DNA of 64,000 nucleotides from a bacterium (GTDB lineage: Bacteria; JAAXHH01), in contig OZ253560.1 in assembly GCA_965262815.1 (NCBI GenBank), positions 2,313,158-2,377,157 of the forward strand, given 5' to 3'. Shown piece after piece: positions 9,865-64,000 of the stretch. The notes under the pieces are model-generated. The model made no database searches. It was not told the origin of the DNA and saw only the letters and a list, made by a program, of their open reading frames with translations. Numbering within the stretch: the first letter of the stretch is position 1; the number at the start of each line of letters is the position of its first letter. The translations under genes and the position numbers were made by a program.

Positions 9865-10134
9865 CTCCAAATCACCCATTTGCCACGATTTTACTAGACC
9901 TGGTCCTCATATCTCTCGTTTACTCCTCCAATACCCTACTTCGCATAATAGATATTATGTAAATCTAATTATGATCTTTCCCGGATCCCTGAGGGTCAGG
10001 GGTGGGTCGAAACTACCCATTAAATCTTGTATTTCGGTCCTAAATTCGTATATCGGAAGCATCTTCTGCCCGGTTTTACCCAGTTCGATCCCCGTTCGCG
10101 GGTCGATAACACCCAATTTCGGCTTAAATGCCCT

Positions 10135-10248
10135 ATTGTACAATTGATATCCTTTTTGTACGATTCGTCCGGGTGATTGTACAATTGTAATATGGTTTGT
10201 ACAATCGTCCGCGTGGGTGTGTACAATTAGTATTATCATTGTACATAG
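10135..10248. repeat. Right array: 6 (A/T)TTGTACAAT boxes with 20-22 bp phasing
   Basis: GTAC cores start at 10138, 10158, 10179, 10199, 10221 and 10241. Confidence 0.8.
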
Positions 10249-10319
10249 GCTCGGCGGCTTGCCGAATGTCAAAGACTGGCAGAATCAGATTACCCGAAGA
10301 TACAACAGTTCAATAAACC

Positions 10320-44702: not shown

Positions 44703-44802
44703 AGGAAAGTTTCTGCAGGAAGTATTAAGTCCGTGCATCCCGCCAGGCATCCTGCCGCCTGCCAACCCATCCAAGTAACTGTACTTGATCCACCCGCTGA
44801 AC

Positions 44803-46703: not shown

Positions 46704-46986
46704 TTTCCTGGTAGCCGTGGTGCTCGGCCAGGGCGGTCATACATCCGCGGGCGCCCCGCGTTTCCGATGGTATTTCGGATCCCCCGATAGGGAATCACTG
46801 GACAAAGGGGTGTTCAATATGACACATCAAGAGGAAATATACAACCCTAATTGCCCCCGTCTTTCAATTTTGGTCGCCGATGGCAGTTTCGAAGGCATGT
46901 GAGACCGGTGTTTACCCTTGTGATCGCGTCCTCCGTTTATATATTGCATCAATATCCGTAAACCGTATCACCTCGGAGGCCATGAC

Positions 46987-48204: not shown

Positions 48205-48231
48205 AACGAACCCAGTATAGGAGTCGATTAC

Positions 48232-49245
48232 ATGAAAATCGCCGTGCTGTACGGCCCTAGAGATCTACGTATCGAAGACCATCCCCTGGACACGGACAAC
48301 CTGGGCCCTCACGATCTCTGGGTCGAGACGATCATCTCCGCACTCAAGATCGGTACGGACCGGGGGAATTACGAGGGCGCCGAGCAGGTACCCGGGGCGC
48401 CTGATTTTCCGCGCTGGGTCGGTGACAGCAATCTCGGCGTCATCCGGGGTGTGGGAGAGGCGGTCACGGATTTCACCGTGGGCGACCGGGTCATCTCACG
48501 GTACCCGCACCAGTCCGAATTCATTGCACGGGACGACGAGGTGATCGTGAAGGTCCCTGACGGCGTGGAGGACGAAGACGCGGTATACGGGCACCTGTAC
48601 ACCTTGAGCGCCATGTGCTACTACAAGTCGCAGTTTCAACCCGGTGAGAACGTGGCCGTCGTAGGACTGGGCGTCCTTGGCCTCGGCGCCGTCGGCCTCG
48701 GACCGTGCCTCGGCGCCCGTGTGATCGGGATCGCGAACAGCCCGGTACGTATGGAAATGGCCGAACGCATGGGTGCCCACGGAACCTTCATGTACAATGA
48801 TCCGGACCTGGATGCGAAACTGGACGACTTCACCCGGGGCGAAGGTATCGACCTGGTCATTCTCACGGCCAATCCATGGCCCGCGCTTCGTACCTCGTGC
48901 CAGATCGTGCGCAACAACGGACGGGTCGGTATCGTAGCACTGCCCGGCAGGGGAGAACAGCCCCTCGACTTCAACCCGCTGGACATGGAATGGTTCTATT
49001 TCAAAGGCATTTCTCTGATCGCCATTAACGGGATGACCGGTTCCCTGTTTCCCTCAGACCGGGGGGACCGCAGGGACTGGCCATCCATGTGCCGATTCAC
49101 GCTCGACCTTATGCGCGATGGGAAACTGGAACCCAAACGCCTGGTGACCCACCGGATGCACTATACCCGGATCAACGAAGCCTACGAGATGATTTATAGA
49201 CGTGAAAAGAACATGATGGGTGTTGTGTTCAACTGGAAGGACTGA
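48232..49245 (+). CDS. Medium-chain dehydrogenase/reductase (MDR) family oxidoreductase
   Basis: 337 aa with the Rossmann motif VVGLGVLG. Confidence 0.75.
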   Translation: MKIAVLYGPRDLRIEDHPLDTDNLGPHDLWVETIISALKIGTDRGNYEGAEQVPGAPDFPRWVGDSNLGVIRGVGEAVTDFTVGDRVISRYPHQSEFIARDDEVIVKVPDGVEDEDAVYGHLYTLSAMCYYKSQFQPGENVAVVGLGVLGLGAVGLGPCLGARVIGIANSPVRMEMAERMGAHGTFMYNDPDLDAKLDDFTRGEGIDLVILTANPWPALRTSCQIVRNNGRVGIVALPGRGEQPLDFNPLDMEWFYFKGISLIAINGMTGSLFPSDRGDRRDWPSMCRFTLDLMRDGKLEPKRLVTHRMHYTRINEAYEMIYRREKNMMGVVFNWKD

Positions 49246-49248
49246 CCG

Positions 49249-50031
49249 ATGACCACAAGGACCTTGCTGTCCAAGAAGCAGGCAGCCGCATTTGAAATTG
49301 ACGGCTACTTCATCGTGGAGGGATTTCTCACCACCGATGAAGTCGAGTCCATTCGTAGCGAGATCACCTCGATCGTGGACCGGTATCCGGACGTGCCGGA
49401 GGAACTCGTGCAGATCGAGCCCGCCGTGCGGCGTGGAACGATCAAACCCGATAACATTGAACTGGGCGTCCGCAAGCTTTTCAGGATGACTCTGCACAAC
49501 GAGCTGTTCCGGTCCCTGGCGCACCATCCTGAAATGGTTGGAATCGCCGTTGAACTGCTTGGACCGGATGTCACCTTGTTTCAAAGCATGCTGCTGATGA
49601 AGCCACCCCGGTTCGGCGGTCAAAAGGTCTGGCACCAGGACAACGCCTACTTCCGCCTGGAGCCTAACGACGTTTTCGGGTACTGGATTGCGCTCGACGA
49701 TGCGACCGTAGAGAACGGGTGCATGCACGTCATCCCGGGATCGCACCTCGCTGGTATTGGAAAGCACGGCGGCGTAGCCGATGACTACGGGTTGGCTTCA
49801 GCCCCTTCCGGTGAAGACGCGGTGGCCTGTGTCATGAATACTGGGGACGCCCTGGTGTTTCATGGCGAGACCTACCACTACACGCCGCCGAATACGACCG
49901 ACCGGCGCCGCAGAGCCTTGCAGTACCACTACGCTTCCACGCACTGCCGACCTTCGAAAGACAGCCCGTTCAAGTCCCTAAAGGCCGAGATTATCGTGGC
50001 GGGGGAGGGGGCCGAGTCCCTGGACGGATAG
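49249..50031 (+). CDS. Phytanoyl-CoA dioxygenase (PhyH) family Fe(II)/2-oxoglutarate oxygenase
   Basis: 260 aa with WHQDNAYF ... HVIPGSH, the HxD...H facial triad. Confidence 0.8.
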   Translation: MTTRTLLSKKQAAAFEIDGYFIVEGFLTTDEVESIRSEITSIVDRYPDVPEELVQIEPAVRRGTIKPDNIELGVRKLFRMTLHNELFRSLAHHPEMVGIAVELLGPDVTLFQSMLLMKPPRFGGQKVWHQDNAYFRLEPNDVFGYWIALDDATVENGCMHVIPGSHLAGIGKHGGVADDYGLASAPSGEDAVACVMNTGDALVFHGETYHYTPPNTTDRRRRALQYHYASTHCRPSKDSPFKSLKAEIIVAGEGAESLDG

Positions 50032-50052
50032 GATAGCCTGAATGAGCAGGCT

Positions 50053-51816
50053 TCAGTCCATGTCAGCGGTATTCGAATCCGGGGCTTCCACGCGCAGGAT
50101 GATGATATCCGTATCATGATACTGCTGGTGGTGGACCGACGAGGCAAAGTGACGCAACAGCCGCAGCGATACTTCCAGTTCCTCAGGTGTCTCCACGGCT
50201 CTTTCGTTGCCGAGCAGTTCAATCCTGTCCTGCAGGTTTCCCTCTCCCGTGGCTGCCACCAGTTCGACTATAGCACTGCCTTCTACCCGGTGCGCGACCA
50301 GGAGCAGGCGATTTCTTTCGTAGGTTTCATTATCCTGCTGGACAAGTGTCAGCAGGGTCTCTTCGCTTGCGGCCACCAGGCGGTCAGCCATCGCGGCGTC
50401 CCAGCGATTGCGTGAGGCGAAATCCTCCAGGAAAGCCCTGATCTTCGGCAGGGCCGACAGGTTGAAGTCGGATTCCATCCGGTAACGACGAGGAGAGGTG
50501 ATCTCCATGAACAGCGTCATCAGCATCGCCGTCAGGCCGCCTGCCGTCATACCGTTTTGCAACAATCCTCCAGCAAAACCCGCAACCAGTTCGGGGAATA
50601 TGGCATCGTTCTGAAAACCCACTCCGATCCAGAAACTCACGCCGACGATTACGCCCTTCCGGTAGTCGATCCCATCCTGTATAACCAGCTTCATGCCAAT
50701 AACGAAGAGCAAGGAAAGCAATACGATCAGGAACCCTCCCGCGACGGGGTTCGGTATGGCCAGCACCACGGCGAGGAACTTGGGAAGGAACGCGACCGCG
50801 ATGAAGGCCGCGCCGACGACCATCCCCACCGTTCGCGCTGCCACTCCGGTCATCTCGGTCACGGCGATGCTCGTGGAATAGGTTGTATTCGGCACCGTGC
50901 CCAGGAGACCGGATAACAGGTTTCCCATGCCATCCGCCGCCACCGCGCCCTGGACCGCACGGAAATCCACCGCCCGGGGCCGACGCCATGATACGCGCTG
51001 TATGGCGATGGAATCTCCGATTGTCTCCACGGCGCCAACGAGTGTCACGAACATGAAAGCAGGAAGCAGTCCCCAGAATGCCGGCCCGAATGCAAGGTCT
51101 ATCCCGGGCCACCCACCTTCGGGGTAACCCACCCACGGCGCGGCCGCCACCCGGGCTGTATCGTAAAATCCAAAGTAAGCACTGACGATGGATCCGGCCG
51201 CGATTCCGAGCAAGGGTGCCCAGAGGCGCAGCGAAGACGTCGCCTTCAACGCGATGCCGATGGTGACCAGCATGGTGACGGCCGCGGTGATCAGAGCCAT
51301 CGACACCGGTCCACCGTCCGGCGCATCCCCAAGCATGTCGAATGCGATGGGCATCACAGTGACCGATATCAACATGATGACCGTGCCGGATACTACCGGA
51401 GTCAGAATCCTGCGAAGGAGCGAAAGTCGCGTCGAAAGCAGGAATTGAAACAGCGAGGAAATGATGATGAGGGTGGCCATCAGTTGAGGACCACCTTCAG
51501 CCAGGGCCGTGATACATACCGCGATGAAGCTGCCTGAGGTGCCCATCATCAGTACATAGCCCGCACCGATCCTGCCGACCCGGACAGCCTGGAGAATTGT
51601 GGTAATGCCGCTGATCGCCGCTGCGGCGAAAACACCCCACGTAAGGTAGGACTCGCTTGCGCCTCCCGCCCGGCTTACGATAGCGACGGTCAGGACAACC
51701 CCGCCCACCGTAAGCAGCGCAATCTGAAGTCCGAGTCCGATGGTCAGGGGTATTGGCGGCTTTTCGTCGGCTTCGTAACGTACGCCCGAAGAGGCAATTT
51801 GCTTTCCCGCATTCAT
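50053..51816 (-). CDS. NCS2 (nucleobase:cation symporter-2 / xanthine-uracil permease) family transporter with a soluble C-terminal extension
   Basis: 587 aa whose layout parallels UraA (EKPPIPLTIGLGLQ..., VPNTTYSTSIAVTEMTGV). The last ~140 aa are non-membrane. Confidence 0.7.
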   Translation of the reverse strand: MNAGKQIASSGVRYEADEKPPIPLTIGLGLQIALLTVGGVVLTVAIVSRAGGASESYLTWGVFAAAAISGITTILQAVRVGRIGAGYVLMMGTSGSFIAVCITALAEGGPQLMATLIIISSLFQFLLSTRLSLLRRILTPVVSGTVIMLISVTVMPIAFDMLGDAPDGGPVSMALITAAVTMLVTIGIALKATSSLRLWAPLLGIAAGSIVSAYFGFYDTARVAAAPWVGYPEGGWPGIDLAFGPAFWGLLPAFMFVTLVGAVETIGDSIAIQRVSWRRPRAVDFRAVQGAVAADGMGNLLSGLLGTVPNTTYSTSIAVTEMTGVAARTVGMVVGAAFIAVAFLPKFLAVVLAIPNPVAGGFLIVLLSLLFVIGMKLVIQDGIDYRKGVIVGVSFWIGVGFQNDAIFPELVAGFAGGLLQNGMTAGGLTAMLMTLFMEITSPRRYRMESDFNLSALPKIRAFLEDFASRNRWDAAMADRLVAASEETLLTLVQQDNETYERNRLLLVAHRVEGSAIVELVAATGEGNLQDRIELLGNERAVETPEELEVSLRLLRHFASSVHHQQYHDTDIIILRVEAPDSNTADMD

Positions 51817-52002
51817 GCTTGCGCTATGCTCCTGTTATGCTTAATGGACGTTGTTGATACATGACTTTGAGGCAACTTCTGACACAGCATAGTACACAAG
51901 TAAACAACACGGTCAAGTATATCCCAATTAGCTATAGGCTCTATAGACGCAGAAAGGGTTACCCGCTTGAGACTATCAATTGCGTAAGACTTTGAAATCA
52001 CC

Positions 52003-53907
52003 TTATGATTGCAGTCCGTATCGTTCTTGTAGCACACAAAGAGAGGTCAATGCCATGATTAAAGGATCGAGGGTGCTTCGTTCGCTTTCTTCCATCCCAG
52101 GCAGACTATCGAGCAACGCGGCCACCTGGCCGTGATCGAAGAAAGGTGACTCTCGCATACCGGGGCCGCGCAGCGTATCCTGGCACATCTCGTACAGCCT
52201 GTTACCCGGATTAAGCGTCGCCGGCGGCGCGAGGAACGGCTTCTTTGAGCCTGTGTATACCTCCTCGGTCAAAAAGGGACGTGCCGCCTCCCGGAGCGGA
52301 TATTTGGGTCGTCCATCCCATGCCAGTAGCCTGGATGGAATCCGGCTTCCGAATTCGAAAAACCGGTGGTCAAGGTAAGGCAGACGCACTTCTACTCCGT
52401 GGGCCATGTCAACCCGCTCGGCCGCCAGGTTGTAACCTGCGAAGAGGGACTTCAGCCAAAGATAGAGTACCTTTTTCACGGGTTCGCGGCCGGCAAGCTG
52501 CTTGCGGTAGTCAAACTGGTTGAAGAAAACCCTGTAGGGGTCACGACCGGCGATGCGTTCCCGGAAATCCCGCGCCAGCAGGCCACGCAGAGTGCCCAAC
52601 TTTCCGCCAAGGGCTTCCATGACCTCGTTGGAAAGTCCAAGGATGCGGCTAATACGTACCAGCCAGGGCGAGACCAGGGCTACCTGGCGTTCCGCGGGGC
52701 TATGCGCGCCAAGCAGCGCCAGGCCGATACGTAACCAGTCGAGTACAGGCCGGCGAGGGCCGCGGAGCAACGCGGGCCGGCAGAATTCATAACCGGCGAA
52801 CAGTTCGTCCGCCCCTTCACCCGCCAGGACGGTCTTGTAACCCGCCCGCCGGATCTCGCCGCTAAGTATGTAACGCGCCACACCGTGCGCGTTGGCCTGT
52901 ATGGCCTCCGCGTGCCATACCGCGTCGGCAAAACGGTCTGCGCAGTCTCCCTGTGAAACTGAAACTGCCTCGTACCCGGTCCGGAGGTGGCGTGCGGTTC
53001 TTCGTGCCACGGGTTCCTCGTCATAGTTCGCATGGTCGAAGGAAATGGTAAAGGCTCTGGGTCGCACAGATCCTCGGCTGGCCATGCCCAGTAGCGCCGA
53101 CGAATCCAATCCCCCGCTGAGCAGACACCCCACCGGTACGTCGGCGCGCATGCGGAGGCGAATCGACTCCTCCAGGCGATGACGGACCTGGTCGACGCAA
53201 CTGGTTGGGTCCCAATCGGTTCCGGACGATTCGATTGGATATTCCACGTCCCAGTAGCGTTCCAGGCGCAGTGCTCCTTCCCGTGCCACCAGACCATACC
53301 CCGGAGGTACCTGCTTCACCCCCGAGAAGAGCGTTCTTTCCGTGTCAAAGCATGCGAATATCTGCTGGCCCACCGTCTCCTCGTCCCAGGCCGGGGGCAC
53401 CCCGGCAGCCAGGAGCGCTTTCACTTCGGAAGCCAGGTAAAGCACCCCTCCTGTTTCCGCGTAGTACAGGGGTTTGATACCGAACCGGTCACGGACCGCC
53501 CACAGCATCTGCAGGTTATCATCCCACAGGACGAACGCAAACTCGCCGCGGAGAGATTCGACGCAGGCACGGCCCTGTTCCTCGTAGAGATGGAGGGCGA
53601 TCTCGCTGTCGGAACCCGTAGCAAAAACATGGCCCCGTTTTACCAGGTCGCTCCTTAACGACTCGAAATCGTAGAACTCGCCGTTTGCGGTGAGGTGCAG
53701 CCGGCCGTCTTCGCTGGCGATGGGCTGGGCGCCGTTTTCCAGGCCGATCACACTCAACCTGGTGTGCCCCAGCCCGATCCTACCGCCCGGACCCACCCAC
53801 GTTCCCCTGCCGTCCGGACCGCGATGGTTGAGCGTATTCGTAGCACGTTCGAGGGCCTCATGCGACCAGGCGCCTCCCCGTGACATTATGGCAGTCAGGC
53901 CACACAT
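52003..53907 (-). CDS. asnB: Asparagine synthase (glutamine-hydrolysing), AsnB family
   Basis: 634 aa with the N-terminal MCGL nucleophile and PP-loop LSGGLDSS. Confidence 0.85.
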   Translation of the reverse strand: MCGLTAIMSRGGAWSHEALERATNTLNHRGPDGRGTWVGPGGRIGLGHTRLSVIGLENGAQPIASEDGRLHLTANGEFYDFESLRSDLVKRGHVFATGSDSEIALHLYEEQGRACVESLRGEFAFVLWDDNLQMLWAVRDRFGIKPLYYAETGGVLYLASEVKALLAAGVPPAWDEETVGQQIFACFDTERTLFSGVKQVPPGYGLVAREGALRLERYWDVEYPIESSGTDWDPTSCVDQVRHRLEESIRLRMRADVPVGCLLSGGLDSSALLGMASRGSVRPRAFTISFDHANYDEEPVARRTARHLRTGYEAVSVSQGDCADRFADAVWHAEAIQANAHGVARYILSGEIRRAGYKTVLAGEGADELFAGYEFCRPALLRGPRRPVLDWLRIGLALLGAHSPAERQVALVSPWLVRISRILGLSNEVMEALGGKLGTLRGLLARDFRERIAGRDPYRVFFNQFDYRKQLAGREPVKKVLYLWLKSLFAGYNLAAERVDMAHGVEVRLPYLDHRFFEFGSRIPSRLLAWDGRPKYPLREAARPFLTEEVYTGSKKPFLAPPATLNPGNRLYEMCQDTLRGPGMRESPFFDHGQVAALLDSLPGMEESERSTLDPLIMALTSLCVLQERYGLQS

Positions 53908-55439
53908 TACCAGGCCTCCCGAAGCTGCGCCCCGCCTGCCTGGCAGGTGAATCTCATCAAGGGTCGGTAGACTTCTCCATTTAATCGTGATGCGCCTGTG
54001 GCTACACGTGTGATCCGTACTTCCACATACACCGACAGGGCTTCCTGCGGCCGCCCTCTGCAGTACCGAGCCGCGTAGCGCTGTCTCAGTCCCTCACGCA
54101 ATTCGGCCGCCCTGGCGAGAGGAAACTTGCGCCAGACAACGCCATGCAGGTAGGACTGCAGCAGGATACTCCGCATGGAATAGGGAAAGAGTCGTTCAGG
54201 ATCTACTTCAGCCCACAGCCCATCCGGCGTTCGTTCCCTGACCTTGTAGTCGAGATCGTAATTCCGACTGTCGACCCAGTCGAGCAGGCGATAGCTCTGT
54301 GCCAGTCCACCGGCCCACAGGACGCCGTAAACACCACGGTGAAGACCTTCAACCCAACCCTGCACAACTGAGACGGGTCGGCCTACCGTCCAGTCGTCGT
54401 AACGCCACTGCGGCTTGGCAAAATCCAATATGGCTTGAAGACCCAGCACGCACGTGACGACCGCGGCCGCCACGCCCCGCCCGGTGATACCACCCTTACC
54501 CACCGGCGTGTTTCGAGTTCCTGACAACGCCATGATTTCGTGGCGGCACCATAGCACTACGCCCGCCAGGCACGCCAAATTGGCGTAAGGGATCTTCAGT
54601 GTTGCGATGATACCGCCGTGAAACAAGATCAACAGTGCGATGACCATCCACTTAACCGGCCGTCCCGGCTGCAGGACCAGCAACAGGACGAACAGGGGCT
54701 CCGCCGCCAAAGCCACGTAACTGGCAACCTTCAACCAGGGTAGAGAACCCGCGCCCCAGAGATCCGGCATCCATGCAATAGGGAGTTTGAGTATGACATA
54801 CAGGGCCGTACCTTCAAGCCACATGGGGCTGGTCAACTTCCACAGGCCGGATGCCGCGTAGACCAAAGCCAGGTTGACCAGGAAACACCGTACGGCCAGC
54901 CCCGGTACCGTGCGGCTTTTCCATCGGTCCACCACCGCCCTGCCCTCACGCCGCCACTCCTTCCACGTCAGGGTATGTCCCACGGGCAAAAGGATCATCC
55001 ATAGCAGGGTCCAGTGGAACACGGCGTCATCGACGTAAAGCACCAGGAAATTCAACCGGTAGGTGGACACGGCCAGCACATAGAGTACCACCGCGCAAAG
55101 GGTCGGCCTGTAGCCTGCCGTGAGGATACCGGATATGAGGACGGCTCCAAGAAAGACGGTCTTCAGGAGAACGGCGGATACTTCGCCCTGGAGCAGGCTC
55201 CACTTCGTGTAGGGGAACAACTCAAGTGAAAGGGTGTGGTCGACCAGGCCATATGGACCGCTTATGTCATTTACTTCAAGGAAGGCAGCCGTAAAATAGG
55301 CACAACTCAGCAACCCTGCCAGGATCCTGAACAGATCGACCGGCAGGGCATACACCGGACTACACATTCGGTCCAAAGCGGTTCGTGGAAACGACTGGGC
55401 AGTCCGGTCTGCGATCACGGAATCCCCCGTTGGCAACAT
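53907..55439 (-). CDS. Polytopic membrane protein, HTTM-like (vitamin-K-dependent gamma-carboxylase / SdpB-like) N-terminal domain plus ~200-aa C-terminal domain
   Basis: 510 aa with N-terminal ...VDLFRILAGLLSCAYF... and multiple TM segments resembling HTTM domains. Its stop overlaps the asnB start (TAATG). Confidence 0.5.
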   Translation of the reverse strand: MLPTGDSVIADRTAQSFPRTALDRMCSPVYALPVDLFRILAGLLSCAYFTAAFLEVNDISGPYGLVDHTLSLELFPYTKWSLLQGEVSAVLLKTVFLGAVLISGILTAGYRPTLCAVVLYVLAVSTYRLNFLVLYVDDAVFHWTLLWMILLPVGHTLTWKEWRREGRAVVDRWKSRTVPGLAVRCFLVNLALVYAASGLWKLTSPMWLEGTALYVILKLPIAWMPDLWGAGSLPWLKVASYVALAAEPLFVLLLVLQPGRPVKWMVIALLILFHGGIIATLKIPYANLACLAGVVLWCRHEIMALSGTRNTPVGKGGITGRGVAAAVVTCVLGLQAILDFAKPQWRYDDWTVGRPVSVVQGWVEGLHRGVYGVLWAGGLAQSYRLLDWVDSRNYDLDYKVRERTPDGLWAEVDPERLFPYSMRSILLQSYLHGVVWRKFPLARAAELREGLRQRYAARYCRGRPQEALSVYVEVRITRVATGASRLNGEVYRPLMRFTCQAGGAQLREAW

Positions 55440-55748: not shown

Positions 55749-56783
55749 CTAGGGGCTTTCCGTTGCATCCAGCGCCAGTTCGACCATCTGCACGAATCGC
55801 TCGTAAGACACCGCGCCATTTATCAACAGGCCGTTGACAAAGAACGATGGCGCCGCGTTTACACCGACCGCTATCGCGTCGTCCATGTCGTCCTGCACTT
55901 CCTGATAGTATTTGCCGGAGTCCAGGCAGGCGTTAAATGGACCGTCGTCCAGCCCCAGTTCCACGGCGTATCGCTTGAGGTGTTCGGTCCCCAGATCCGT
56001 CGTTGTAAACAGGCGGTCGTGGTAGGGCCAGAACGCCCCCTGCTCATTGGCGCACTGGGCCGCTTCAGCGGCCTTCTGGGCCTCCGGATGAATCCGTCGC
56101 AGTGGGAAATCGCGATAGACTAGTTTCAGTTTACCTTCGTAGGTGGACATGAGCCGATTCAATACGGACTGCACGCGGCGGCAGTATGGACACTGAAAGT
56201 CAGAGAACTCGATCAACGTAACGGGGGCGTTGACGGAACCCTTGTAAGGGTCGTCGTCGGCACTGACTTCGACACGGGGCGGTTTCAAGTAGATACGGAC
56301 GTCGTAGCGCTCGCGCAACTCGCGTGCAAACGCTTCGCGTCGATTACGTTCCGCCTGCTGCGTCAACAGCGCGGTAAGCCGTCCTTCCATTACCTCGAAG
56401 GACTGCGACATTCGATCCCTGTTCTTGTCATAGAAACTTCGGACCTTATCCGGTCCCACAGACTCCAGCTTCTCCATGATTTCTACACGTTCCAATTCTA
56501 CCCTGCTCAATCCCCGCGAAACTGCTTCCAGGTCGTACAGACGGCTGGTAACCATGGCATCCAGCTGGATCCTCATGGCCTCGTACCGTTCTAAATCCAA
56601 CTGAAGAAGCTGGCCACGCATGGCGGTTTGGAGTGTTTCGGCTGTTATGGGCTGACCTTGCACCGTCGCGACTACATCGGTCTGAGCCGTGACCGTGGTT
56701 GGATAGCATAACAACTGGAGAGTCAAGGCGCAGGACACCAGCGTCAGCCAACTGGAAGCGTATGTAGATCTAGGTAACTTCAT
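55749..56783 (-). CDS. DsbA-family thiol:disulfide oxidoreductase with signal peptide and long N-terminal helical region
   Basis: The track ORF extends to 56993. ATG 56783 gives a signal peptide MKLPRSTYASSWLTLVSCALTLQ.... Thioredoxin motif FSDFQCPYCRR. Confidence 0.8.
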   Translation of the reverse strand: MKLPRSTYASSWLTLVSCALTLQLLCYPTTVTAQTDVVATVQGQPITAETLQTAMRGQLLQLDLERYEAMRIQLDAMVTSRLYDLEAVSRGLSRVELERVEIMEKLESVGPDKVRSFYDKNRDRMSQSFEVMEGRLTALLTQQAERNRREAFARELRERYDVRIYLKPPRVEVSADDDPYKGSVNAPVTLIEFSDFQCPYCRRVQSVLNRLMSTYEGKLKLVYRDFPLRRIHPEAQKAAEAAQCANEQGAFWPYHDRLFTTTDLGTEHLKRYAVELGLDDGPFNACLDSGKYYQEVQDDMDDAIAVGVNAAPSFFVNGLLINGAVSYERFVQMVELALDATESP

Positions 56784-56971
56784 GGCGGGTATAACCTTAC
56801 ACCAATGTGTATGGAATGTCAAGGCGATTCGGGCTCCCAGGCCGACGCTTCTTATTGGCCATTGTTCGATATCGGGAAAACCAGGGTTTGGCAGCACATC
56901 CGCAGGCGCCATTGGGATACTATGAAACATACGATTACTCACCTTCCGATTAGTACTAAACAAAAAAATAC

Positions 56972-57000
56972 TTGACGAGTGTATACGCATCAATTATGTA
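56972..57000 (+). promoter_or_regulatory. Candidate sigma70 promoter for the giant surface-protein gene
   Basis: An A-tract is followed by TTGACG-N17-TATGTA, about 100 nt upstream of ATG 57097. Confidence 0.4.
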
Positions 57001-57096
57001 GTAAACAGACAATGCGTAAGTTGTCAAAGAAAGTCGAGGGTTACGAGAGCTTTGAGGACATACTGGAAAGTCTAAATATCCTACTTGAGGTGCGCT

Positions 57097-60000
57097 ATGA
57101 ATCTGGACTGGCGAAGTATGAGAAGTGCCGCCCAAGTCGTCGTTTTCGGATTCCTGAATTCCGTACTCGGTACGGCCAGGCGCTGTTGGCTTGGGGCGGA
57201 GACTGTATTGCCGTCATTACGGGTGAAACTGATCCCACTTTTCCTGCTGAGCAGTTTTCTCGTAGCACTTCTGCTTCAGGCCTACATTCCATCTTCCGCC
57301 CAGAATGATCCTGGTCAGGCCGGAAATACCAATTTATCGTCTACACTCTCGCGCGCGTTCCTTTACGGCGATAACGACTCACCCCTTGTCGAGTCCGCCA
57401 GTAACAGGATATTCACGCCGGAGAACTCGATTAAGACTGATCGATCATGGCTCGATGTATGTGAACGCACGGCGCAGGTTCGCGACGTCATCGTCGGCAG
57501 CGTAGAAGGAATCGACGACTGTTCCGGCCTGACCGTGGCTCATCTCTCCAAAATCACTTCCATTGACTTGTCGGGACAGGGGATTAAGAGTTTCAAGGCC
57601 GGAGATTTTTCCGGTTTAAGCGCGTTGAAGTTGCTTAAACTTGGGGATAACCAGCTGACCGGTATCCCTGAAGGCCTGTTCGACGACCTTCCCGCACTGC
57701 AATACCTCTATTTAAACAAGAACGGACTGACTGAACTGCATGGTGACCTGTTCAAAGGCCTCTCCAGACTGGAGATACTATACCTATATGATAATTCCCT
57801 TGCAGCATTGCCTCCGGACCTCTTTGAAGATCTGACATCACTCAAGCAGTTGAACCTGACCGACAACAACCTGGAAACTTTACCGGATGACGTGTTCAAT
57901 CCCTTGGTCAAGCTGGAGATCCTTCGTCTCGGCTGGAACGAATTAACCATCCTACCCGATCAACTGTTCGAGCGTCTCACCAATCTGAAATACTTGAACG
58001 TAATCGGCAATCCGGGTTTAGGTGGATCCAACAAGATGGAGTATGCCGGCAGTGACCGATCCTCGGCCCCAGGGGAGAAAGTCGCCGACCGTGAATCAGG
58101 CAGCAAACCAGCACAGGAAACCAGTGTATCTTTCGCATTGGCCGAGATGGACGCTTTCGAAACACCAGGCTCGCCATTCGAATTTACACCTGCCGCTACA
58201 CCTGCCGAAACCGATATCGACAGGATGATGGTCGACGACGTAGCTGCGGATCAGACCAACGACGTAGCTGCGGATCAGACTGACGCCAACCTTACTGCCC
58301 TATCCCTGAGCTATGGCGGCACCCGTATTCCATTCATCAGACCGTTCACGTCAGAAAGAACATCCTACAGGGCCTGGGTACCTTCTACTGTGGACATCGT
58401 GACCTTGGAAGCCGAACCAAGTGATTCCAGTGCGGCGCTTCTGTACATCCCGTCCGATGTGGACGCCAATCCGGATAACGGGCACCAGGTTATGCTCGGA
58501 GAAAAAGACGTCACGATCATCTCGGTGACGGTCACGGCAGCAGACGGTAAAACCCTGCGCACGTACATGGCAGCCGCGCTCCGTCAAGGACCGATGATCT
58601 GCTGGCCCATATACGGCTCTTCAGCGGCGGTCGCGGTAGCTGCGGCCAGTGCATTCCTGGGTGACGATGAGACCACCAACATCGATCCGAGATTTGGTTC
58701 CGCCACAATATCTCGTTCACTTGCCGAAAACGTGGGAGACGCGACGACAGCCGTGGCAGAGCACATCGGTAATCCATACACGGCGATGGATACTGATGGC
58801 GATGATCTGACTTACAGTCTTGCAGGGTCGGCCGCTGCCATGTTCGACGTTGAATCGGGTACTGGTCAGATTATGTCGATAGCGGGAGTCAACTACGATC
58901 ACGAAACGCAGCCCAGCCATTCGGTAACCGTGACAGCCAGCGATGGCAAGGGCGGTAGCGACACCATCGGTGTTATAATCCATGTAGCGGATGTGAATGA
59001 ACCACCCTTGGCGCCAGGGCAAGCTGTTGTGTCCTCCGTACCGGGAAGCATCACCAGCTTGTCTGTGAGCTGGTCGGCGCCGTCCAATACCGGCCGGCCG
59101 GACATCCAGAGCTACAACCTCCAGTACAGGGAAGGCAACAATGGAGACTGGTCCAACGGTCCGCGGAACGTCACTGGTACGAGCACGACCATTTCCGGTC
59201 TCAGTGAAGACACTTCCTACCAGGCGCAGGTGATGGCCACCAACGCCGAGGGAGATGGTCCCTGGTCGTCCCCGGGCACCGGGCGGACCAATAGGAACAG
59301 CCCACCCGAGTTCGCCGACGCCACCACGACCCGCAGCCTAACGGAAAATATCGGCGACGCAATTACGACTTCCGCGGAGAACCTGGGCGCCGCCATTTCT
59401 GCGACCGATGATGACAACGACACACTGACTTACAGCATAGAAGGTTCGGACGCCGCCTCATTCACCATCGGTGCCAGTTCCGGGCAGCTCAAGACAAAGG
59501 TGGGGGTAAACTACAGTCACGAGGTCACGCCCACCCTGTCGGCAATGGTGAGGGTCAGCGACGGTCGCGGTGCCACTGACACTATCGATGTAACCATCAC
59601 CGTGAACGATGTGAACGAACCACCCCTGGCACCCGGACAACCGGTTGTGTCAGCCGTTTCAGGAAGTAAAACCAGCTTGTCGGTGAACTGGGCGCCGCCG
59701 TCCAACACCGGCCGGCCAACCATCCAGAGCTACAATCTCCAGTACAGGGAAGGCAATAGTGGAGACTGGTCCAACGGCCCACAGAACGTCACCGGTACGG
59801 TCTCGACCATTTCTGGTCTCAGCGAAGACACTTTATACCAGGTGCAAGTGATGGCCTCCAACGCAGAGGGAGATGGGCCCTGGTCGTCCCCGGGCATCGG
59901 GCGGACCAATAGGAACAGCTCGCCGGAGTTCGCCGACACCACCGCAACGCGCAACCTGACGGAAAACACCGGCGACGCTACTACTACCACCGCGGAGAAC

Positions 60001-63000
60001 CTGGGCAGCGCTATCATAGCGACAGATGCTGATGATGACATGCTGCAGTACAGTTTAGATGGTGGGGATGTATCTCTCATTGACATCAATACCGGTTCAG
60101 GGCAACTCATGTCCAAGGTCGGAGTCAACTACAGCCACGAGACCACACCCACCCTGTCGGTGATCGTGAGGGCCAGCGACGGCAATGGCGGAAGCGATAC
60201 CATACCGGTTACTATAAACGTCATAGACATAGACGAGCCGCCGCTGGCGCCGACTGCACCCGCGATCACCCCGATGCACGATAGCATGACAAGCCTTTCG
60301 GTGACATGGTCGCCGCCATACAATATGGGCCGGCCGGTCATTGAAAGTTACGACTTGCGGTACCGAAACGGTGTTGATACGGATTGGTCCGATGGACCAC
60401 AGGACCAGGACGGCACGAGTACAGTCCTCTACAGCCTGTCGTCGGATTCCGACTACATGGTACAGGTAAGAGCAACCAATGATGAAGGCGACGGTGAATG
60501 GTCCGAGTTGAACAAGGGTAGGACCAACAACATTCCGCAGAACACCAACACCCCGGTGAAAAACAACAATGCCCCTGAGTTCGCAGCTACCACCGCGTCA
60601 CGCAGTCTGACCGAAAACGTGGGAAGCGCCACCACAACTACCGCAGAGAATCTGGGTGCCGCTTTCGAGGCTACCGACGAGGACAGTACAGACACGCTGG
60701 CCTACAGCATTGAGGGACCTAACGCTTCGTCGTTCAGCATAGATTCCGGTTCAGGACAACTCAAGACCAAGGTTGGGGTAAACTACAGTCACGAAGCCAC
60801 ACCTACCCTGTCGGTGACCGTACGGGCCAGGGACAGTCGCGGCGGCAACGACACCATTGCAGTGACTGTTACCGTCAACGACGTCGACGAACCGCCCCTG
60901 GCGCCGGCTGCGCCGACGGTCTCCGCCGTCTCCGGAAGTACCACCGACCTCTCTGTCAGTTGGAACCCACCTGCAAATTCAGGTAGGCCATCTATCGATA
61001 GCTACGACCTGCAGTACCGGCCGGGCACGAGTGGTATCTGGTTAGACGGTACCCAGAACGTCAACGGCACCAGTTCCACTATCGCAAGCCTTGAGCCCGA
61101 TTCGCTATACCAAGTAACGGTCCGGGCGACAAATGCCGAGGGCGACAGTCCGTATTCTTCACCCGGCAGCGGCCGGACCAATGCGGAGAGCGTTAATAAC
61201 CTGCTGAACAACGAACCGGAATTCGACGCTACTTCAGCCTCTCGCGACGTAGATGAAAACGAGGGTGACGCCACCACGAGTTCGTCCGTTAACCTTGGCA
61301 ATCCATTCACGGCCACAGATGAGGACAGTACGGACACGATGTCCTACAGTATCGAGGGGACGAATGCTTCTTCGTTCGACATCGATTCAGACTCCGGTCA
61401 ACTCAAGACCAAGGTAGGGGTCAATTACGATCACGAGGCGACACCCACCCTGTCGGTGACCGTGAGGGCCAGTGACGATAATGGTGGCAGCGACACCATC
61501 GTCGTGACTGTCACCGTCGAAGATGTCAACGAACCGCCCCTCGCACCGGGACAACCGGTAGTGTCCGCCGTATCGGGAAGCATCACCAGCCTGTCGGTGA
61601 GCTGGTCGGCGCCGTCAAATACCGGCCGACCGGCCATCCAGAGCTACGATCTTCAATACCTGGAAGACGACAGTGAAGACTGGTCAAACGGTCCGCAGAA
61701 CGTCCCAGGTACCAGTACGAGCACGACCATTTCCAGCCTCAAAGCCGACACGCCCTACCAGGTGCAGGTTTTGGCCACAAACGCCGAGGGCTCTGGGCCC
61801 TATTCGTCGCCTGGCAGTGGACAAACCAATGCGCCGAGCAACAGCGGGCCGGAGTTTGCAGGCGCCACCGCGACGCGCAGCCTTGACGAGAACATCGGCA
61901 GCGCCACCACTGCTTCAGCGGAGAACCTGGGCGCTGCTTTCACGGCAACCAATACGGATGGTGATACCCTGTCTTTCAGCCTTGAAGGCCCGGATGCGTC
62001 CTCGTTCGACATCGATCCAGATTCAGGTCAACTCAAGACCAGGGTAGGGGTCAACTATGATCACGAGACTACGCCCACCCTGTCCGTGACCGTGAAGGTC
62101 AGCGACGGAAACGACGGCAGCGATACCATCGACGTGACCGTCACCGTGAACGATGTTGATGAAAAACCCCTGGCGCCCACGGTGAGTTCGGTCACAGTCA
62201 CCGAAACAAGCCTGTTTGTGGAATGGACCGCGCCGTCCAATACAGGACGCCCCGCAATCCTGAGCTACGACCTGCAATACCGGGAGGGCACCAGTGGGCC
62301 CTGGATAAACGGTCCGCAGGATAGGACCGGCATGAGTGCGCCTGTCACAGGACTATCCCCCAGCACTTCCTACCAGGTGCACGTACGGGCTTCGAACGAC
62401 GAAGGCGATGGGCTGTATTCGAACCCGCCAAGCAGTGGACAGACCCGAAATCCGCCACCGCCTAATTGTTTGGCAGGGGACGAGGGTGAATTCCGTCTCG
62501 TGAATGGCAGTACACCCAACGAAGGCCGATTGGAAGTCTGCCACGATCTTAAGTGGGGCACGATCTGCGACGACTACTGGACCACCGACGATGCGACTGT
62601 CGTATGTCGCGAGCACCTCGGCTATCCAGCAGGTGCGATGTCGGGTGGTGGGAAATTCCTCGGCGCGAGAAATGGACCTTATTTTGGAGCGGCCGCCAGC
62701 GATGTCCCGATCTGGCTGGACGACCTTTTATGTGATGGCAACGAGGATAGCCTGCTTGACTGCGAAGTAGCTAGAGGCGGGCTCGCCAGTGAAAACTGGG
62801 GCCTGCACAACTGCAAGCATTCCGAGGACGTGGGCTTACGCTGTCTCACCGAAAGTGGGCGGGTGACGGTACAGGATGAATCGTTGACTCCGGCACTGAG
62901 CGTAGAGGACGCACAGGCGACCGAGGGTGGAAGTCTATCCTTCCGCGTGTCGCTAACGCCGACGTCGGACGAAGAAGTAACAGTGAGTTACGCCACATCG

Positions 63001-64000
63001 GATGTCACGGCTAGCGCGGATCAGGACTACACCCCGGTCAGTCACTCGCTTTCCTTCATGCCGGGGGATACCGCGAAGATAGTCGAGGTGGCCGTACTTG
63101 AAGACGCAATAGACGAAGGAAAGGAAACACTCACCCTCAGGCTTTCGAATGCGGAAGGCGCACACCTCGAGGATGAAGTAGCAACCGGCACCATCGAGAA
63201 CAACAACGCCATGGCGCTGGCCTGGACCACGCGCTTCGGCCGCACGGTTGCAAGCCAGGTGGTGGAAGCGGCGAGCGCACGGATGGATGTGAGCGGAGAT
63301 CCCTATTTGACCGTTGGGAATATGCAGTTGGGCGGAATGGGATCGATAGGTAAGTCGAACCCGTCCTCCCTGCCATGGATCGCAAGTGAAAGGAATGCGA
63401 AGCACAGGGGCGGCCCCGATGCCTTGCACTCGCAACAAGTTCTATCAGGAAGTGGCTTCTACTTTTCATCCGAGGGAACCAGAACCGGGTTGCCCGGTTT
63501 CGCCGCATGGGGCCGTGTGTCAACCGGCGGTTTCGAAGCCGAGATCGACAATGCCCTGATGGACGGGAGGACAACGACCGGGATGATGGGACTGGATGCT
63601 TCCTGGAACCGTTTGACAGCCGGTGTGCTTGTTTCACGAAGCTATGGAAAGGGATCTTACTCGCTGAACCGGGACTCCAACGAAGATGACAACGAAGTGG
63701 AAAGTACCCTGACGGGCTTCTACCCATCCGCCTGGCTGAAGTTGAACCAACGCGTGTCGCTGTGGGGACTGGTTGGGGTCGGAATCGGCGACATGACGCT
63801 CCGGCAACAGGGCGAAACCCAGGTAGAGACCGATCTGGACATGCGCATGGGCGCATTCGGAATCAAGGGCAGGTTAATCGGTGGTGGAATATCGAGTGGA
63901 CTGGCCCTGGCCGTGAAATCTGACGCCATGTGGGTGCGCACGACAGCCGAAGCCACAGCCGCACTGGCTGAAGTCCAGGGAGATGTCACCCGGGTACGCC
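57097..64000 (+). CDS. Giant secreted adhesin-like protein, autotransporter (type Va)-like, 3' end beyond the window. Architecture: LRR, cadherin-like beta-sandwich, 6x(cadherin+FN3), SRCR, Calx-beta, beta-barrel start.
   Basis: Not in the supplied track. The + frame containing 57097 has its last stop at 57073-57075 and is open to the window edge; I checked it codon by codon over most of its length. ATG 57097 follows GAGGTG. Alternative starts are ATG 57118 and GTG 57223. Confidence 0.9.
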   Translation, partial: MNLDWRSMRSAAQVVVFGFLNSVLGTARRCWLGAETVLPSLRVKLIPLFLLSSFLVALLLQAYIPSSAQNDPGQAGNTNLSSTLSRAFLYGDNDSPLVESASNRIFTPENSIKTDRSWLDVCERTAQVRDVIVGSVEGIDDCSGLTVAHLSKITSIDLSGQGIKSFKAGDFSGLSALKLLKLGDNQLTGIPEGLFDDLPALQYLYLNKNGLTELHGDLFKGLSRLEILYLYDNSLAALPPDLFEDLTSLKQLNLTDNNLETLPDDVFNPLVKLEILRLGWNELTILPDQLFERLTNLKYLNVIGNPGLGGSNKMEYAGSDRSSAPGEKVADRESGSKPAQETSVSFALAEMDAFETPGSPFEFTPAATPAETDIDRMMVDDVAADQTNDVAADQTDANLTALSLSYGGTRIPFIRPFTSERTSYRAWVPSTVDIVTLEAEPSDSSAALLYIPSDVDANPDNGHQVMLGEKDVTIISVTVTAADGKTLRTYMAAALRQGPMICWPIYGSSAAVAVAAASAFLGDDETTNIDPRFGSATISRSLAENVGDATTAVAEHIGNPYTAMDTDGDDLTYSLAGSAAAMFDVESGTGQIMSIAGVNYDHETQPSHSVTVTASDGKGGSDTIGVIIHVADVNEPPLAPGQAVVSSVPGSITSLSVSWSAPSNTGRPDIQSYNLQYREGNNGDWSNGPRNVTGTSTTISGLSEDTSYQAQVMATNAEGDGPWSSPGTGRTNRNSPPEFADATTTRSLTENIGDAITTSAENLGAAISATDDDNDTLTYSIEGSDAASFTIGASSGQLKTKVGVNYSHEVTPTLSAMVRVSDGRGATDTIDVTITVNDVNEPPLAPGQPVVSAVSGSKTSLSVNWAPPSNTGRPTIQSYNLQYREGNSGDWSNGPQNVTGTVSTISGLSEDTLYQVQVMASNAEGDGPWSSPGIGRTNRNSSPEFADTTATRNLTENTGDATTTTAENLGSAIIATDADDDMLQYSLDGGDVSLIDINTGSGQLMSKVGVNYSHETTPTLSVIVRASDGNGGSDTIPVTINVIDIDEPPLAPTAPAITPMHDSMTSLSVTWSPPYNMGRPVIESYDLRYRNGVDTDWSDGPQDQDGTSTVLYSLSSDSDYMVQVRATNDEGDGEWSELNKGRTNNIPQNTNTPVKNNNAPEFAATTASRSLTENVGSATTTTAENLGAAFEATDEDSTDTLAYSIEGPNASSFSIDSGSGQLKTKVGVNYSHEATPTLSVTVRARDSRGGNDTIAVTVTVNDVDEPPLAPAAPTVSAVSGSTTDLSVSWNPPANSGRPSIDSYDLQYRPGTSGIWLDGTQNVNGTSSTIASLEPDSLYQVTVRATNAEGDSPYSSPGSGRTNAESVNNLLNNEPEFDATSASRDVDENEGDATTSSSVNLGNPFTATDEDSTDTMSYSIEGTNASSFDIDSDSGQLKTKVGVNYDHEATPTLSVTVRASDDNGGSDTIVVTVTVEDVNEPPLAPGQPVVSAVSGSITSLSVSWSAPSNTGRPAIQSYDLQYLEDDSEDWSNGPQNVPGTSTSTTISSLKADTPYQVQVLATNAEGSGPYSSPGSGQTNAPSNSGPEFAGATATRSLDENIGSATTASAENLGAAFTATNTDGDTLSFSLEGPDASSFDIDPDSGQLKTRVGVNYDHETTPTLSVTVKVSDGNDGSDTIDVTVTVNDVDEKPLAPTVSSVTVTETSLFVEWTAPSNTGRPAILSYDLQYREGTSGPWINGPQDRTGMSAPVTGLSPSTSYQVHVRASNDEGDGLYSNPPSSGQTRNPPPPNCLAGDEGEFRLVNGSTPNEGRLEVCHDLKWGTICDDYWTTDDATVVCREHLGYPAGAMSGGGKFLGARNGPYFGAAASDVPIWLDDLLCDGNEDSLLDCEVARGGLASENWGLHNCKHSEDVGLRCLTESGRVTVQDESLTPALSVEDAQATEGGSLSFRVSLTPTSDEEVTVSYATSDVTASADQDYTPVSHSLSFMPGDTAKIVEVAVLEDAIDEGKETLTLRLSNAEGAHLEDEVATGTIENNNAMALAWTTRFGRTVASQVVEAASARMDVSGDPYLTVGNMQLGGMGSIGKSNPSSLPWIASERNAKHRGGPDALHSQQVLSGSGFYFSSEGTRTGLPGFAAWGRVSTGGFEAEIDNALMDGRTTTGMMGLDASWNRLTAGVLVSRSYGKGSYSLNRDSNEDDNEVESTLTGFYPSAWLKLNQRVSLWGLVGVGIGDMTLRQQGETQVETDLDMRMGAFGIKGRLIGGGISSGLALAVKSDAMWVRTTAEATAALAEVQGDVTRVR
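57541..58017 (+). other. Leucine-rich repeat region (about six 24-aa repeats) of the giant protein
   Basis: LSALKLLKLGDNQLTGIPEGLFDD / LPALQYLYLNKNGLTELHGDLFKG / LSRLEILYLYDNSLAALPPDLFED / LTSLKQLNLTDNNLETLPDDVFNP / LVKLEILRLGWNELTILPDQLFER. Confidence 0.85.
58288..58580 (+). other. Cadherin-like beta-sandwich-type domain of the giant protein
   Basis: NLTALSLSYGGTRIPFIRPFTSERTSYRAWVPSTVDIVTLEAEPSD...VTIISVTVTAADGKTLRTY. Confidence 0.6.
58687..62450 (+). repeat. Six tandem 618-651-nt coding modules, each a cadherin-like domain plus a fibronectin-III-like domain
   Basis: P-E/R-F module starts at 58687, 59305, 59923, 60574, 61216 and 61849. Each has ...D.D.D.L.YS...F.ID..SGQL...VNYDHE....L.V.V.D..GG.D...V.V.V.DV.EPP, then LAP....SLSVSW..P.N.GRP.I.SY.LQYR....W......T...I..L....Y.V.V.A.N.EG. 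Confidence 0.85.
62491..62844 (+). other. Scavenger receptor cysteine-rich (SRCR) domain of the giant protein
   Basis: FRLVNGSTPNEGRLEVCHDLKWGTICDDYWTTDDATVVCREHLGY...IWLDDLLCDGNEDSLLDC...WGLHNCKHSEDVGLRC follows the SRCR consensus almost position by position. Confidence 0.8.
62896..63204 (+). other. Calx-beta domain of the giant protein
   Basis: LSVEDAQATEGGSLSFRVSLTPTSDEEVTVSYATSDVTASADQDYTPVSHSLSFMPGDTAKIVEVAVLEDAIDEGKETLTLRLSN. Confidence 0.75.
63205..64000 (+). other. Start of an autotransporter-type outer-membrane beta-barrel (translocator) domain, truncated by the window
   Basis: AWTTRFGRTVASQVVEAASARM (linker helix type), then alternating-hydrophobic strands GFAAWGRVSTGGFEAE, TTGMMGLDASWNRLTAGVLVS, TLTGFYPSAWL, LWGLVGVGIGDMTL, LALAVKSDAMWVRT. 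Confidence 0.7.

Follow-up and report, generated by a model that had tools for sequence, protein, structure and literature searches.

A 2,502-residue, probable bacterial surface protein joining eukaryote-type adhesion modules to a divergent, predicted autotransporter-type barrel

What kind of protein is encoded by a frame that stays open to the very edge of a stretch of bacterial DNA, and how might that protein come to stand on the cell surface? The stretch in question, a 64,000-nt segment of contig OZ253560.1 (GCA_965262815.1; hereafter the window), carries at its 3′ edge, on the + strand, a giant open reading frame (ORF). The frame had been noticed from the letters of the DNA alone and interpreted as an autotransporter whose passenger consists of eukaryote-type adhesion modules (the sequence-only reading). 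Translation of 57001-64000 confirms the frame: after a stop at 57073-57075, it opens with ATG 57097 and is free of stops to base 63999, which gives 2,301 codons. As the sequence-only reading had pointed out, the supplied ORF track lists only short antisense or out-of-frame ORFs across 57.3-64.0 kb; the giant ORF is absent from it because the frame runs off the window. The ORF is real and intact and encodes a predicted bacterial surface protein of 2,502 residues, of which the window holds codons 1-2301 (57097-64000, +), the final 201 codons and the stop lying past the edge. We consider it probable that this protein is a self-exported, Ca2+-stiffened surface adhesin of a diderm bacterium, secreted in a type Va-like manner.

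The complete product was found by an exhaustive profile search with the C-terminal domain. This search retrieved a protein of 2,502 aa (P0206), encoded on a 3.76-Mb contig, that is 100% identical over all 2,301 window residues, shares the ATG and extends the window ORF by 201 residues to the C-terminus ...AILLRATFRF. The gene is therefore intact and merely cut by the window, and the 3′ end and stop that the sequence-only reading lacked are recovered. No stop or frameshift interrupts the frame: P0206 is full length, and the orthologue in a related genome (L060, described below) is intact at 3,169 aa. A GAGG lies 6 nt 5′ of ATG 57097, and the GC content across the giant gene (0.52-0.59) is near that of the rest of the window. 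Because the DNA has ~58% GC and the frame is full of significant domain matches, a chance origin of this stop-free run is ruled out.

A Pfam scan of the translation bore out the modules proposed from the sequence and their order, namely leucine-rich repeats (LRRs), a cadherin-like segment, cadherin+FN3 modules, an SRCR domain and a Calx-beta domain. The LRR domain (57448-58056, +; LRR_8 at aa ~148-317, E 1.9e-31, with additional LRR_4 and LRR_9 matches) begins with an N-flank capped by two cysteines (C122, C142), behind which lie about seven repeats of 24 residues; five of these have exact LxxLxxLxLxxNxL cores at 24-aa spacing, with weaker repeats on either side. The DVAADQT duplication described in the sequence-only reading was recovered by Tandem Repeats Finder (TRF) at 58235-58280 (+) as a tandem repeat with a period of 24 nt, 1.9 copies and a 100% match. 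It is followed by a cadherin-like beta-sandwich (PF12733; 58291-58569, +; aa 399-491), with E-values of 5.6e-8 in the whole protein and 4.7e-10 in a sub-fragment.

The bulk of the passenger is formed by six tandem cadherin+FN3 modules of 206-218 aa each (58675-62448, +; aa 527-1784), with bounds at 58675-59292, 59293-59910, 59911-60528, 60529-61182, 61183-61830 and 61831-62448, all on the + strand. In this array, Pfam detects fn3 in six stretches (E 6.7e-79) and Cadherin (PF00028) in four (E 7.5e-32). Compared with one another, the modules show 53-69% identity at the protein level and 60-73% at the DNA level, without any exact DNA repeat of at least 25 nt; on sequence comparison, they are old duplications. 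Mis-assembly of the repeats, which had been raised as a possible objection, is unlikely given this divergence and the lack of such exact repeats, and was rejected. Acidic motifs of the cadherin/Calx Ca2+ type (DxNEPP and DxDxD) are present, and the mature protein as a whole is strongly acidic (D+E 327 vs K+R 147). We suggest that the cadherin+FN3 array may form a Ca2+-stiffened stalk and that the LRR domain may be its distal ligand-binding tip.

Downstream of the array lies the SRCR domain (62500-62844, +; PF00530, aa 1802-1916, E 1.1e-21), which scores 77.5 bits vs a cutoff of 26.1 and has eight cysteines between aa 1791 and 1916, in keeping with the conserved cysteine framework of the SRCR superfamily. 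The mature protein contains 11 cysteines, 8 of them within the SRCR domain, and the passenger is otherwise Cys-poor. The closest relatives of this domain are of metazoan type, with 31-58% local identity and at most 48% where at least 80% of the query is covered; among them are group-B SRCR proteins of fish, DMBT1, neurotrypsin-like proteins of molluscs and a protein of the sponge Geodia (38%). The idea that the SRCR domain was recently acquired from a host was rejected on the grounds of this best identity of 48% and of matches scattered over fish, birds, molluscs and one sponge. The domain is kept in the L060 orthologue. The last passenger module is the Calx-beta domain (62926-63201, +; PF03160, aa 1944-2035, E 3.6e-17), and a profile search of PDB sequences matched this region to the NCX1 CBD structures. 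The Pfam scan gave no pertactin, pectin-lyase or autochaperone-type match, and the modules listed account for the whole passenger.

At the N-terminus, the signal sequence claimed earlier is supported by inspection and by hydropathy, and it sits behind an extension of 42 residues. The Sec-type signal peptide, (V)KLIPLFLLSSFLVALLLQAYIPSSA/QN, occupies 57223-57300 (+; aa 44-68); by inspection, KLIPLFLLSSFLVALLLQAYIPSSA, which is followed by Q, combines a basic n-region, a hydrophobic core of 16 residues and an SSA cleavage motif, and the hydropathy peak (2.73 at aa 48) falls in this region. The segment is kept in the orthologues of L060 and of a second related locus, L001. The extension itself (57097-57222, +), delimited by orthologue comparison, behaves differently: the ATG and first codons (MNLD) are shared with L060, while the extension measures 42 codons in the window gene, ~100 in L060 (1883-~2190) and ~240 in L001 (~1188-1900), with sequences that are unrelated among the three orthologues and nonetheless all in frame. 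These extensions may be translated, or the start codons may have been called too far upstream; translation may accordingly start at ATG 57097 or at the alternative GTG 57223. An extended signal peptide region of the ESPR type was considered and rejected, there being no Pfam ESPR match and no conservation of the extension among the orthologues. The L001 extension holds an internal repeat, and in many other members of the C-terminal domain family, Arg-rich extensions of 20-100 residues precede the hydrophobic core.

The C-terminal ~460-aa domain begins directly behind the Calx-beta domain with a linker helix, AWTTRFGRTVASQVVEAASARM (63220-63288, +), which was mapped onto P0206 from a model of a family member in which the helix has a predicted local distance difference test (pLDDT) score of ~87. 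The motif W..RFGRTV.SQVVDA within this linker is kept in the family profiles A1, A2 and A3. Mapping of the strands of the same model onto P0206 places beta-strands one to seven of a predicted outer-membrane barrel, and the beginning of strand eight, at 63496-64000 (+), the remaining strands being encoded beyond the window. The protein ends in an aromatic residue (...AILLRATFRF), as is characteristic of a beta-signal.

The family to which this domain belongs is very large. Profile searches at E<=1e-3 recovered 8,829 clusters (50% identity), of which 4,692 reach E<=1e-30. Essentially all of the best 150 members, proteins of 400-4,110 residues, have the domain at their C-terminus, and 135 of the 148 retrieved members are at least 470 aa long and have F, W or Y as the final residue; the genomic relatives end in W or F. 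Many of the large N-terminal regions that precede the domain carry Sec signals. A minority is recognized by autotransporter models: TIGR01414 matched three of the seven members tested first (P0012 with 24.6 bits, P0011 with 25.0 and P0002 with 16.1 vs a cutoff of 16) and 13 of 47 members in the larger set, where PF03797 matched four (best E 4.7e-12). Judged from these searches, the barrel is very divergent, and its family is very large and missed by standard models.

The structure prediction that the sequence-only reading had proposed was carried out on P0012, a family member 50% identical to the domain of this protein, and yielded a helix followed by a barrel-like fold. Of two AlphaFold models, the first has a pLDDT of 58 and the second a pLDDT of 70.7 with a predicted TM-score (pTM) of 0.65; both contain an N-terminal helix (pLDDT ~87; residues 2-21 in model 2) and then long antiparallel strands. 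With either model, the top PDB matches in Foldseek are the type Va beta-domains of BrkA, EspP (including pre-cleavage forms), Hbp and NalP, followed by AIDA-I, EstA and AaaA, at E-values of 4e-6 to 1e-3 and moderate target-normalised TM-scores of 0.48-0.66 for the chains that consist of a beta-domain only. Fold matches to FhaC and BamA are far weaker than those to type Va barrels. DSSP assigns 12 confident strands in model 2 (pLDDT 80-94), then a low-confidence insert and four more strands (pLDDT 61-75), for a total of 16. The insert of ~60 residues (P0012 342-402, equivalent to P0206 ~2383-2443, past the window) is present in about 52 of 60 aligned members and is for this reason taken as a conserved feature and not as a lineage-specific insertion. 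A scan for alternating hydrophobicity (amphipathicity) along the strands gave no decision between 12 and 16. The models are thus compatible with a barrel of 12 strands plus a sub-domain or with a 16-strand barrel, and identity with the classical 12-strand type Va barrel is not established. Remote homology and the predicted fold nevertheless support the C-terminal domain as an autotransporter-type barrel.

Conservation across the family extends from the barrel into the passenger. The Calx-beta domain passes straight into the linker helix, with the consensus ...ATGTIxNxDPMPxAWxxRFGRTVxSQVVDA..., and 35 of the 47 members examined have a Calx-beta domain (of the 12 that lack it, 7 are too short to hold one), as do 10 of 11 genomic relatives. 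Upstream of this junction, the passengers vary and comprise FN3, cadherin, cadherin-like, Big_9/Big_12 and SWM repeats, LRR and SRCR, the last present in 4 of 47 members, together with much sequence that is blank in Pfam; beta-helix families are absent from the Pfam matches listed for these passengers. The architecture that the sequence-only reading had called unusual is so when compared with characterised autotransporters, while within this barrel family beta-sandwich passengers are the norm. Family loci occur, often in several copies per genome, in metagenome-assembled genomes (MAGs) of Gammaproteobacteria (including Ca. Poriferihabitaceae), Binatia, Rhodobacterales, Rhodospirillales, Bdellovibrionales, Longimicrobiales, Pseudomonadales and Azotimanducaceae, and the barrel family has so far been found only in uncultured, apparently sponge- or coral-associated bacteria.

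At least four paralogues of the Calx-beta-barrel cassette, with differing passengers, are present per genome in OZ245021.1 (L002, L005, L013 and L016), OZ241969.1 (L010, L011, L012 and L015) and CATQHQ01 (L021, L023, L024 and L026), and some of the paralogous frames are open for 2,800-3,800 codons or past the end of the locus. Such genomes suggest that each symbiont encodes its display proteins as a multigene family.

Apart from the giant gene, the window is an ordinary piece of bacterial chromosome that carries pnp, infB, nusA and rpsA along with genes for a tRNA-Arg and an OmpA-family protein. Its polynucleotide phosphorylase (PNPase) is 98% identical to that of OZ252103.1 and 96% identical to that of OZ245326.1, both closed MAGs, and about 90-92% identical to those of MAGs labelled Candidatus Latescibacterota or Gemmatimonadota. 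The organism likely belongs to the lineage that bears these labels, as a Latescibacterota-like symbiont, and the bin names of several related MAGs suggest an association with sponges or corals. In OZ245326.1 (L060), the locus has the same flanks and an intact orthologue with identical domain order, nine FN3 domains vs six in the window gene, on a closed MAG chromosome. In CBDEKM01 contig_14 (L001, 1188-11023), the orthologue at the same locus is split into four ORFs of 988, 1,671, 250 and 340 aa, which could be due to assembly errors or reflect a pseudogene; an assembly error is conceivable since the contig name has a '5x' tag, which we took to indicate low coverage. In the closest genome, OZ252103.1 (L063), the match to window 43060-53035 runs straight into the final ~230 codons of the barrel. 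Compared with the window from 53035 onward, this junction (at 9923-10708) represents a deletion of >11 kb in which the asparagine-synthase-like gene has lost its 5′ part, and a gene of 510 aa, a DsbA-like gene and nearly all of the giant gene are gone. Comparison of these genomes indicates that the giant gene is a variable, dispensable accessory locus.

The neighbour of the giant gene encodes a DsbA-like protein with a thioredoxin fold (55749-56993, −; Thioredoxin_4 1.3e-29, DSBA 1.8e-21). Of its 414 aa, residues 246-405 match Thioredoxin_4/DSBA, and the ~245 N-terminal residues have no family match. Wherever the locus is retained (the window, L001 and L060), this gene and the giant gene are divergently paired, and in OZ252103.1 the two are co-deleted; the DsbA-like product may be a functional partner that acts on the SRCR disulfides. 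Between the two genes lies a stretch of ~90 nt (56921-57011, +) that is near 100% identical in the window, L060 (~1705-1795) and L001 (~1001-1090), against an identity of only 77-86% for the coding DNA on either side in the same three genomes. Because the called TTG start of the DsbA-like gene overlaps this ultra-conserved stretch, the true start is probably further downstream. The stretch is present as a single copy in the window, was found elsewhere only at orthologous loci, and carries a promoter-like TTGACG-N17-TATGTA pair; a scan with consensus promoter and terminator models gave no call, including for this pair. A known RNA family was rejected, the stretch having no match in Rfam. The leader downstream of it folds modestly better than shuffled sequence (z = −2.1). 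We regard the stretch as a likely regulatory region common to the giant gene and the divergent dsbA-like gene, as its conservation suggests. The 510-aa ORF (53907-55439, −), which lies inside the segment deleted in OZ252103.1, has no match in Pfam or among PDB sequences. Farther away, at 8001-10300, the GC content of the window falls to 0.49, and this region contains two ORFs, a small one that is ThiS/MoaD-like and one that is zinc-dehydrogenase-like, besides ~800 nt of AT-rich sequence without a convincing ORF.

We infer as follows how this protein is exported and oriented, what Ca2+ contributes, and what its ligand and host may be. The Sec signal peptide, behind its variable N-terminal extension, would bring the precursor to the periplasm, and the beta-barrel assembly machinery (BAM) would insert the C-terminal ~460-residue domain into the outer membrane via the terminal ...RF beta-signal. 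The linker helix and the adjoining Calx-beta domain would be the first parts of the passenger to reach the surface. The remainder would then emerge from the C- to the N-terminus, beginning with the SRCR domain and continuing with the six cadherin+FN3 modules, the cadherin-like domain and finally the LRR tip. Outside the cell, the high Ca2+ of seawater would fold and stiffen the acidic beta-sandwich modules, thereby driving and rectifying translocation, so that Ca2+-dependent vectorial folding would do the work of the beta-helix and autochaperone in classical passengers. A stiff stalk, tens of nanometres long, would result, on which the LRR head and the SRCR domain are displayed; it could attach the cell to the extracellular matrix or to adhesion molecules of a host, or mimic them. 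We favour host adhesion or mimicry as the role because the module types and the literature on sponge symbionts fit it.

The following observations weigh against this reading. Neither PF03797 nor TIGR01414 matches the window fragment or, even at E<=10, the complete 461-aa domain, and the only Pfam match of the barrel region is a weak one to the generic OMP_b-brl model. The L060 orthologue likewise has no PF03797 or TIGR01414 match, and precomputed PF03797 matches are found in 0 of the 120 closest relatives. Searches of PDB sequences (phmmer and profiles A1, A2 and A3) returned no barrel, only Calx-beta structures, and comparison of the E. coli Ag43 beta-domain with the family profiles (hhalign, phmmer and hmmsearch) gave nothing significant. 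The TM-scores of the fold matches are only moderate; DSSP counts 16 strands vs 12 in the classical barrel, with a conserved insert; and ~70 residues separate the linker helix from strand 1 in the P0012 model. The claim of an autotransporter-type barrel made in the sequence-only reading therefore stands in one part and not in another: it fails when judged by the direct scan of this protein, where no translocator model matches, and it is supported through the relatives that match PF03797 or TIGR01414 and through the fold of the P0012 model. A further point concerns the passenger. Oxidised, disulfide-bonded loops limit secretion through 12-strand autotransporter barrels, and for this reason the SRCR domain, with up to four disulfides and a DsbA-like gene adjoining, is the main difficulty for the proposed route if it becomes oxidised in the periplasm. 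The DsbA-like neighbour, the ~90-nt conserved stretch and a possibly larger barrel touch on this difficulty without explaining it. Finally, the gene is dispensable, as its deletion from the closest genome, OZ252103.1, indicates, and the host association is taken from the names of related MAGs.

The alternative that survives best retains the surface display and the autotransporter-like export and changes the target, with the adhesin serving bacterial aggregation, biofilm formation or the binding of polysaccharide by its cadherin modules. We consider this unlikely, though worth keeping in view. Bacterial cadherin domains have been found to bind carbohydrate, and bacterial FN3 domains have been tied to carbohydrate binding and biofilm (PMC10947273, PMC8163846); the loss of the gene from a close relative and the lack of a known host ligand are also compatible with a non-host target. 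The LRR head and the SRCR domain, however, are protein-recognition modules typical of animal receptors, SRCR recurs in several family members, and the relatives come from MAGs whose names point to sponge and coral holobionts, all of which argues for the host-directed role.

Decidedly less probable, in our judgement, is that the C-terminal domain serves only as an outer-membrane anchor or porin-like barrel, the N-terminal part being exported by another system or remaining in the periplasm. This would suit a barrel that matches no autotransporter model and resembles OMP_b-brl weakly, and its ~16 predicted strands and long spacer after the helix are unlike those of solved type Va barrels. Against it stands the C-terminal position of the domain in essentially all of the best 150 members, behind large regions that in many cases carry Sec signals; a subset of the family matches PF03797 or TIGR01414, and the top structural matches are autotransporter beta-domains and not porins or OmpA. 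Moreover, it is hard to see what an array of ~2,000 residues of Ca2+-type adhesion modules would do in the periplasm.

An artefact or a dead gene (a mis-assembled array, a chimera with host DNA or a pseudogene), which the repetitive architecture, the four-ORF orthologue with its '5x' tag and the deletion in OZ252103.1 might suggest, is very improbable in view of the divergence of the modules in DNA, the identical full-length product on a 3.76-Mb contig, the intact orthologue with the same flanks in a closed chromosome, the uniform GC and contiguity with housekeeping genes, and a frame that is unbroken from the signal peptide to the C-terminal beta-signal.

Within the reading of a self-exported adhesin, a bolder and tentative proposal, doubtful at present, is that the C-terminal domain and the Calx-beta domain together constitute an unrecognised subclass of type V secretion, in which an enlarged barrel of ~16 strands with the conserved insert, and with a Ca2+-binding Calx-beta domain acting as the autochaperone, would pass bulky beta-sandwich and even disulfide-rich modules such as SRCR, and would have spread laterally as a generic display platform for eukaryote-like modules among sponge and coral symbionts that belong to several phyla and classes. 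If true, such a subclass would supply the missing route by which eukaryote-like modules reach the host interface.

How does this protein compare with known systems? It shares with type Va autotransporters (BrkA, EspP, Hbp, NalP and AIDA-I) a Sec signal, a big passenger, a predicted helix, a C-terminal barrel and an aromatic end; the barrels of these proteins are its best structural matches, and their models PF03797 and TIGR01414 match a minority of the family. The barrel described here differs from theirs in going undetected by the models, in its size (~460 aa vs ~280), in its 16 predicted strands, in the insert and in the ~70-residue spacer, and the passenger lacks the beta-helix and autochaperone and consists of LRR, cadherin, FN3, SRCR and Calx-beta modules instead. 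In the literature, the passengers of type Va are beta-helical, with alpha-helical, globular ones as the exception (PMC5767081; also PMC3419190), and the beta-helix and autochaperone are typical of type Va but not obligatory, EstA being an exception (PMC5767081). EstA-type proteins, which with AaaA are among the fold matches here, provide a precedent for a type Va barrel that exports a non-beta-helical passenger without an autochaperone (PMC5767081); the passenger of EstA, however, is a single globular alpha/beta enzyme, whereas that of the present protein is a tandem array of beta-sandwiches and LRRs of ~2,000 residues. For type V secretion as a whole, the barrel family would amount to a further, very large clade (thousands of 50%-identity clusters), left unannotated by standard models, with beta-sandwich and LRR passengers, a conserved Calx-beta junction and possibly a larger barrel, and it bears on how passenger folding drives export and on the limits set by passenger size and oxidation.

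Among the other branches of type V secretion, type Ve proteins (intimin and invasin) likewise present a rod of tandem beta-sandwich domains, Ig-like in their case, with a binding tip. Sequential folding of the Ig-like domains has been proposed to drive type Ve export, and the Ca2+-driven folding of modules proposed here is likened to it. In type Ve, by contrast, the barrel is N-terminal and the passenger C-terminal, whereas the barrel of the present protein lies at the extreme C-terminus, and inverse-autotransporter domain families are absent from its Pfam scan. Unlike types Vb and Vd, the protein has no POTRA or Omp85 family match in the Pfam scan, nor are these families among the 25 commonest in the 47 family members. 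The RTX adhesins of type I secretion systems (T1SS), such as LapA and MpIBP-like proteins, resemble it in their long, acidic, Ca2+-dependent beta-sandwich stalks with distal ligand modules, and LapA also has a Calx-beta domain (PMC7616799). Their C-terminal RTX/T1SS signal and N-terminal retention module, however, set them apart from a protein with an N-terminal Sec signal and a C-terminal barrel.

The same domain classes (LRR, cadherin and FN3) are characteristic of the eukaryotic-like proteins of sponge symbionts. Genes for cadherin, FN3 and LRR domains are reported to be enriched in sponge MAGs and to have moved among them by lateral transfer; few of the lineages are said to encode secretion systems, and traditional routes to be unlikely for eukaryote-like proteins (PMC8163846). 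FN3 and LRR have also been reported in sponge Latescibacterota (PMC12993501). These surveys count domains and give no route of export or display, while here a barrel is attached to them; a self-contained display cassette that current hidden Markov models (HMMs) miss would make the question of symbiont secretion testable. The literature searched contained no type V-like barrel joined to eukaryote-like modules in sponge symbionts, no Calx-beta-autotransporter cassette and no bacterial SRCR domain. With the toolkit of the sponge host, the protein has the Calx-beta, FN3 and SRCR domain types in common: the sponge aggregation factor is rich in Calx-beta (PMC11670116), and SRCR families are reportedly expanded in sponges (PMC10855680, PMC4772301). 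In sequence the relationship is not close, the SRCR domain of the present protein being at most 48% identical to any animal protein, Geodia included. The protein might mimic or bind elements of the sponge toolkit, and a bacterial SRCR domain and a Calx-beta domain on one surface adhesin are concrete candidates for such mimicry, the hosts being rich in both. Compared with all of these systems, the parts and the general principle are known, and what is new is their combination, the divergence of the barrel and the size of the unannotated family to which it belongs.

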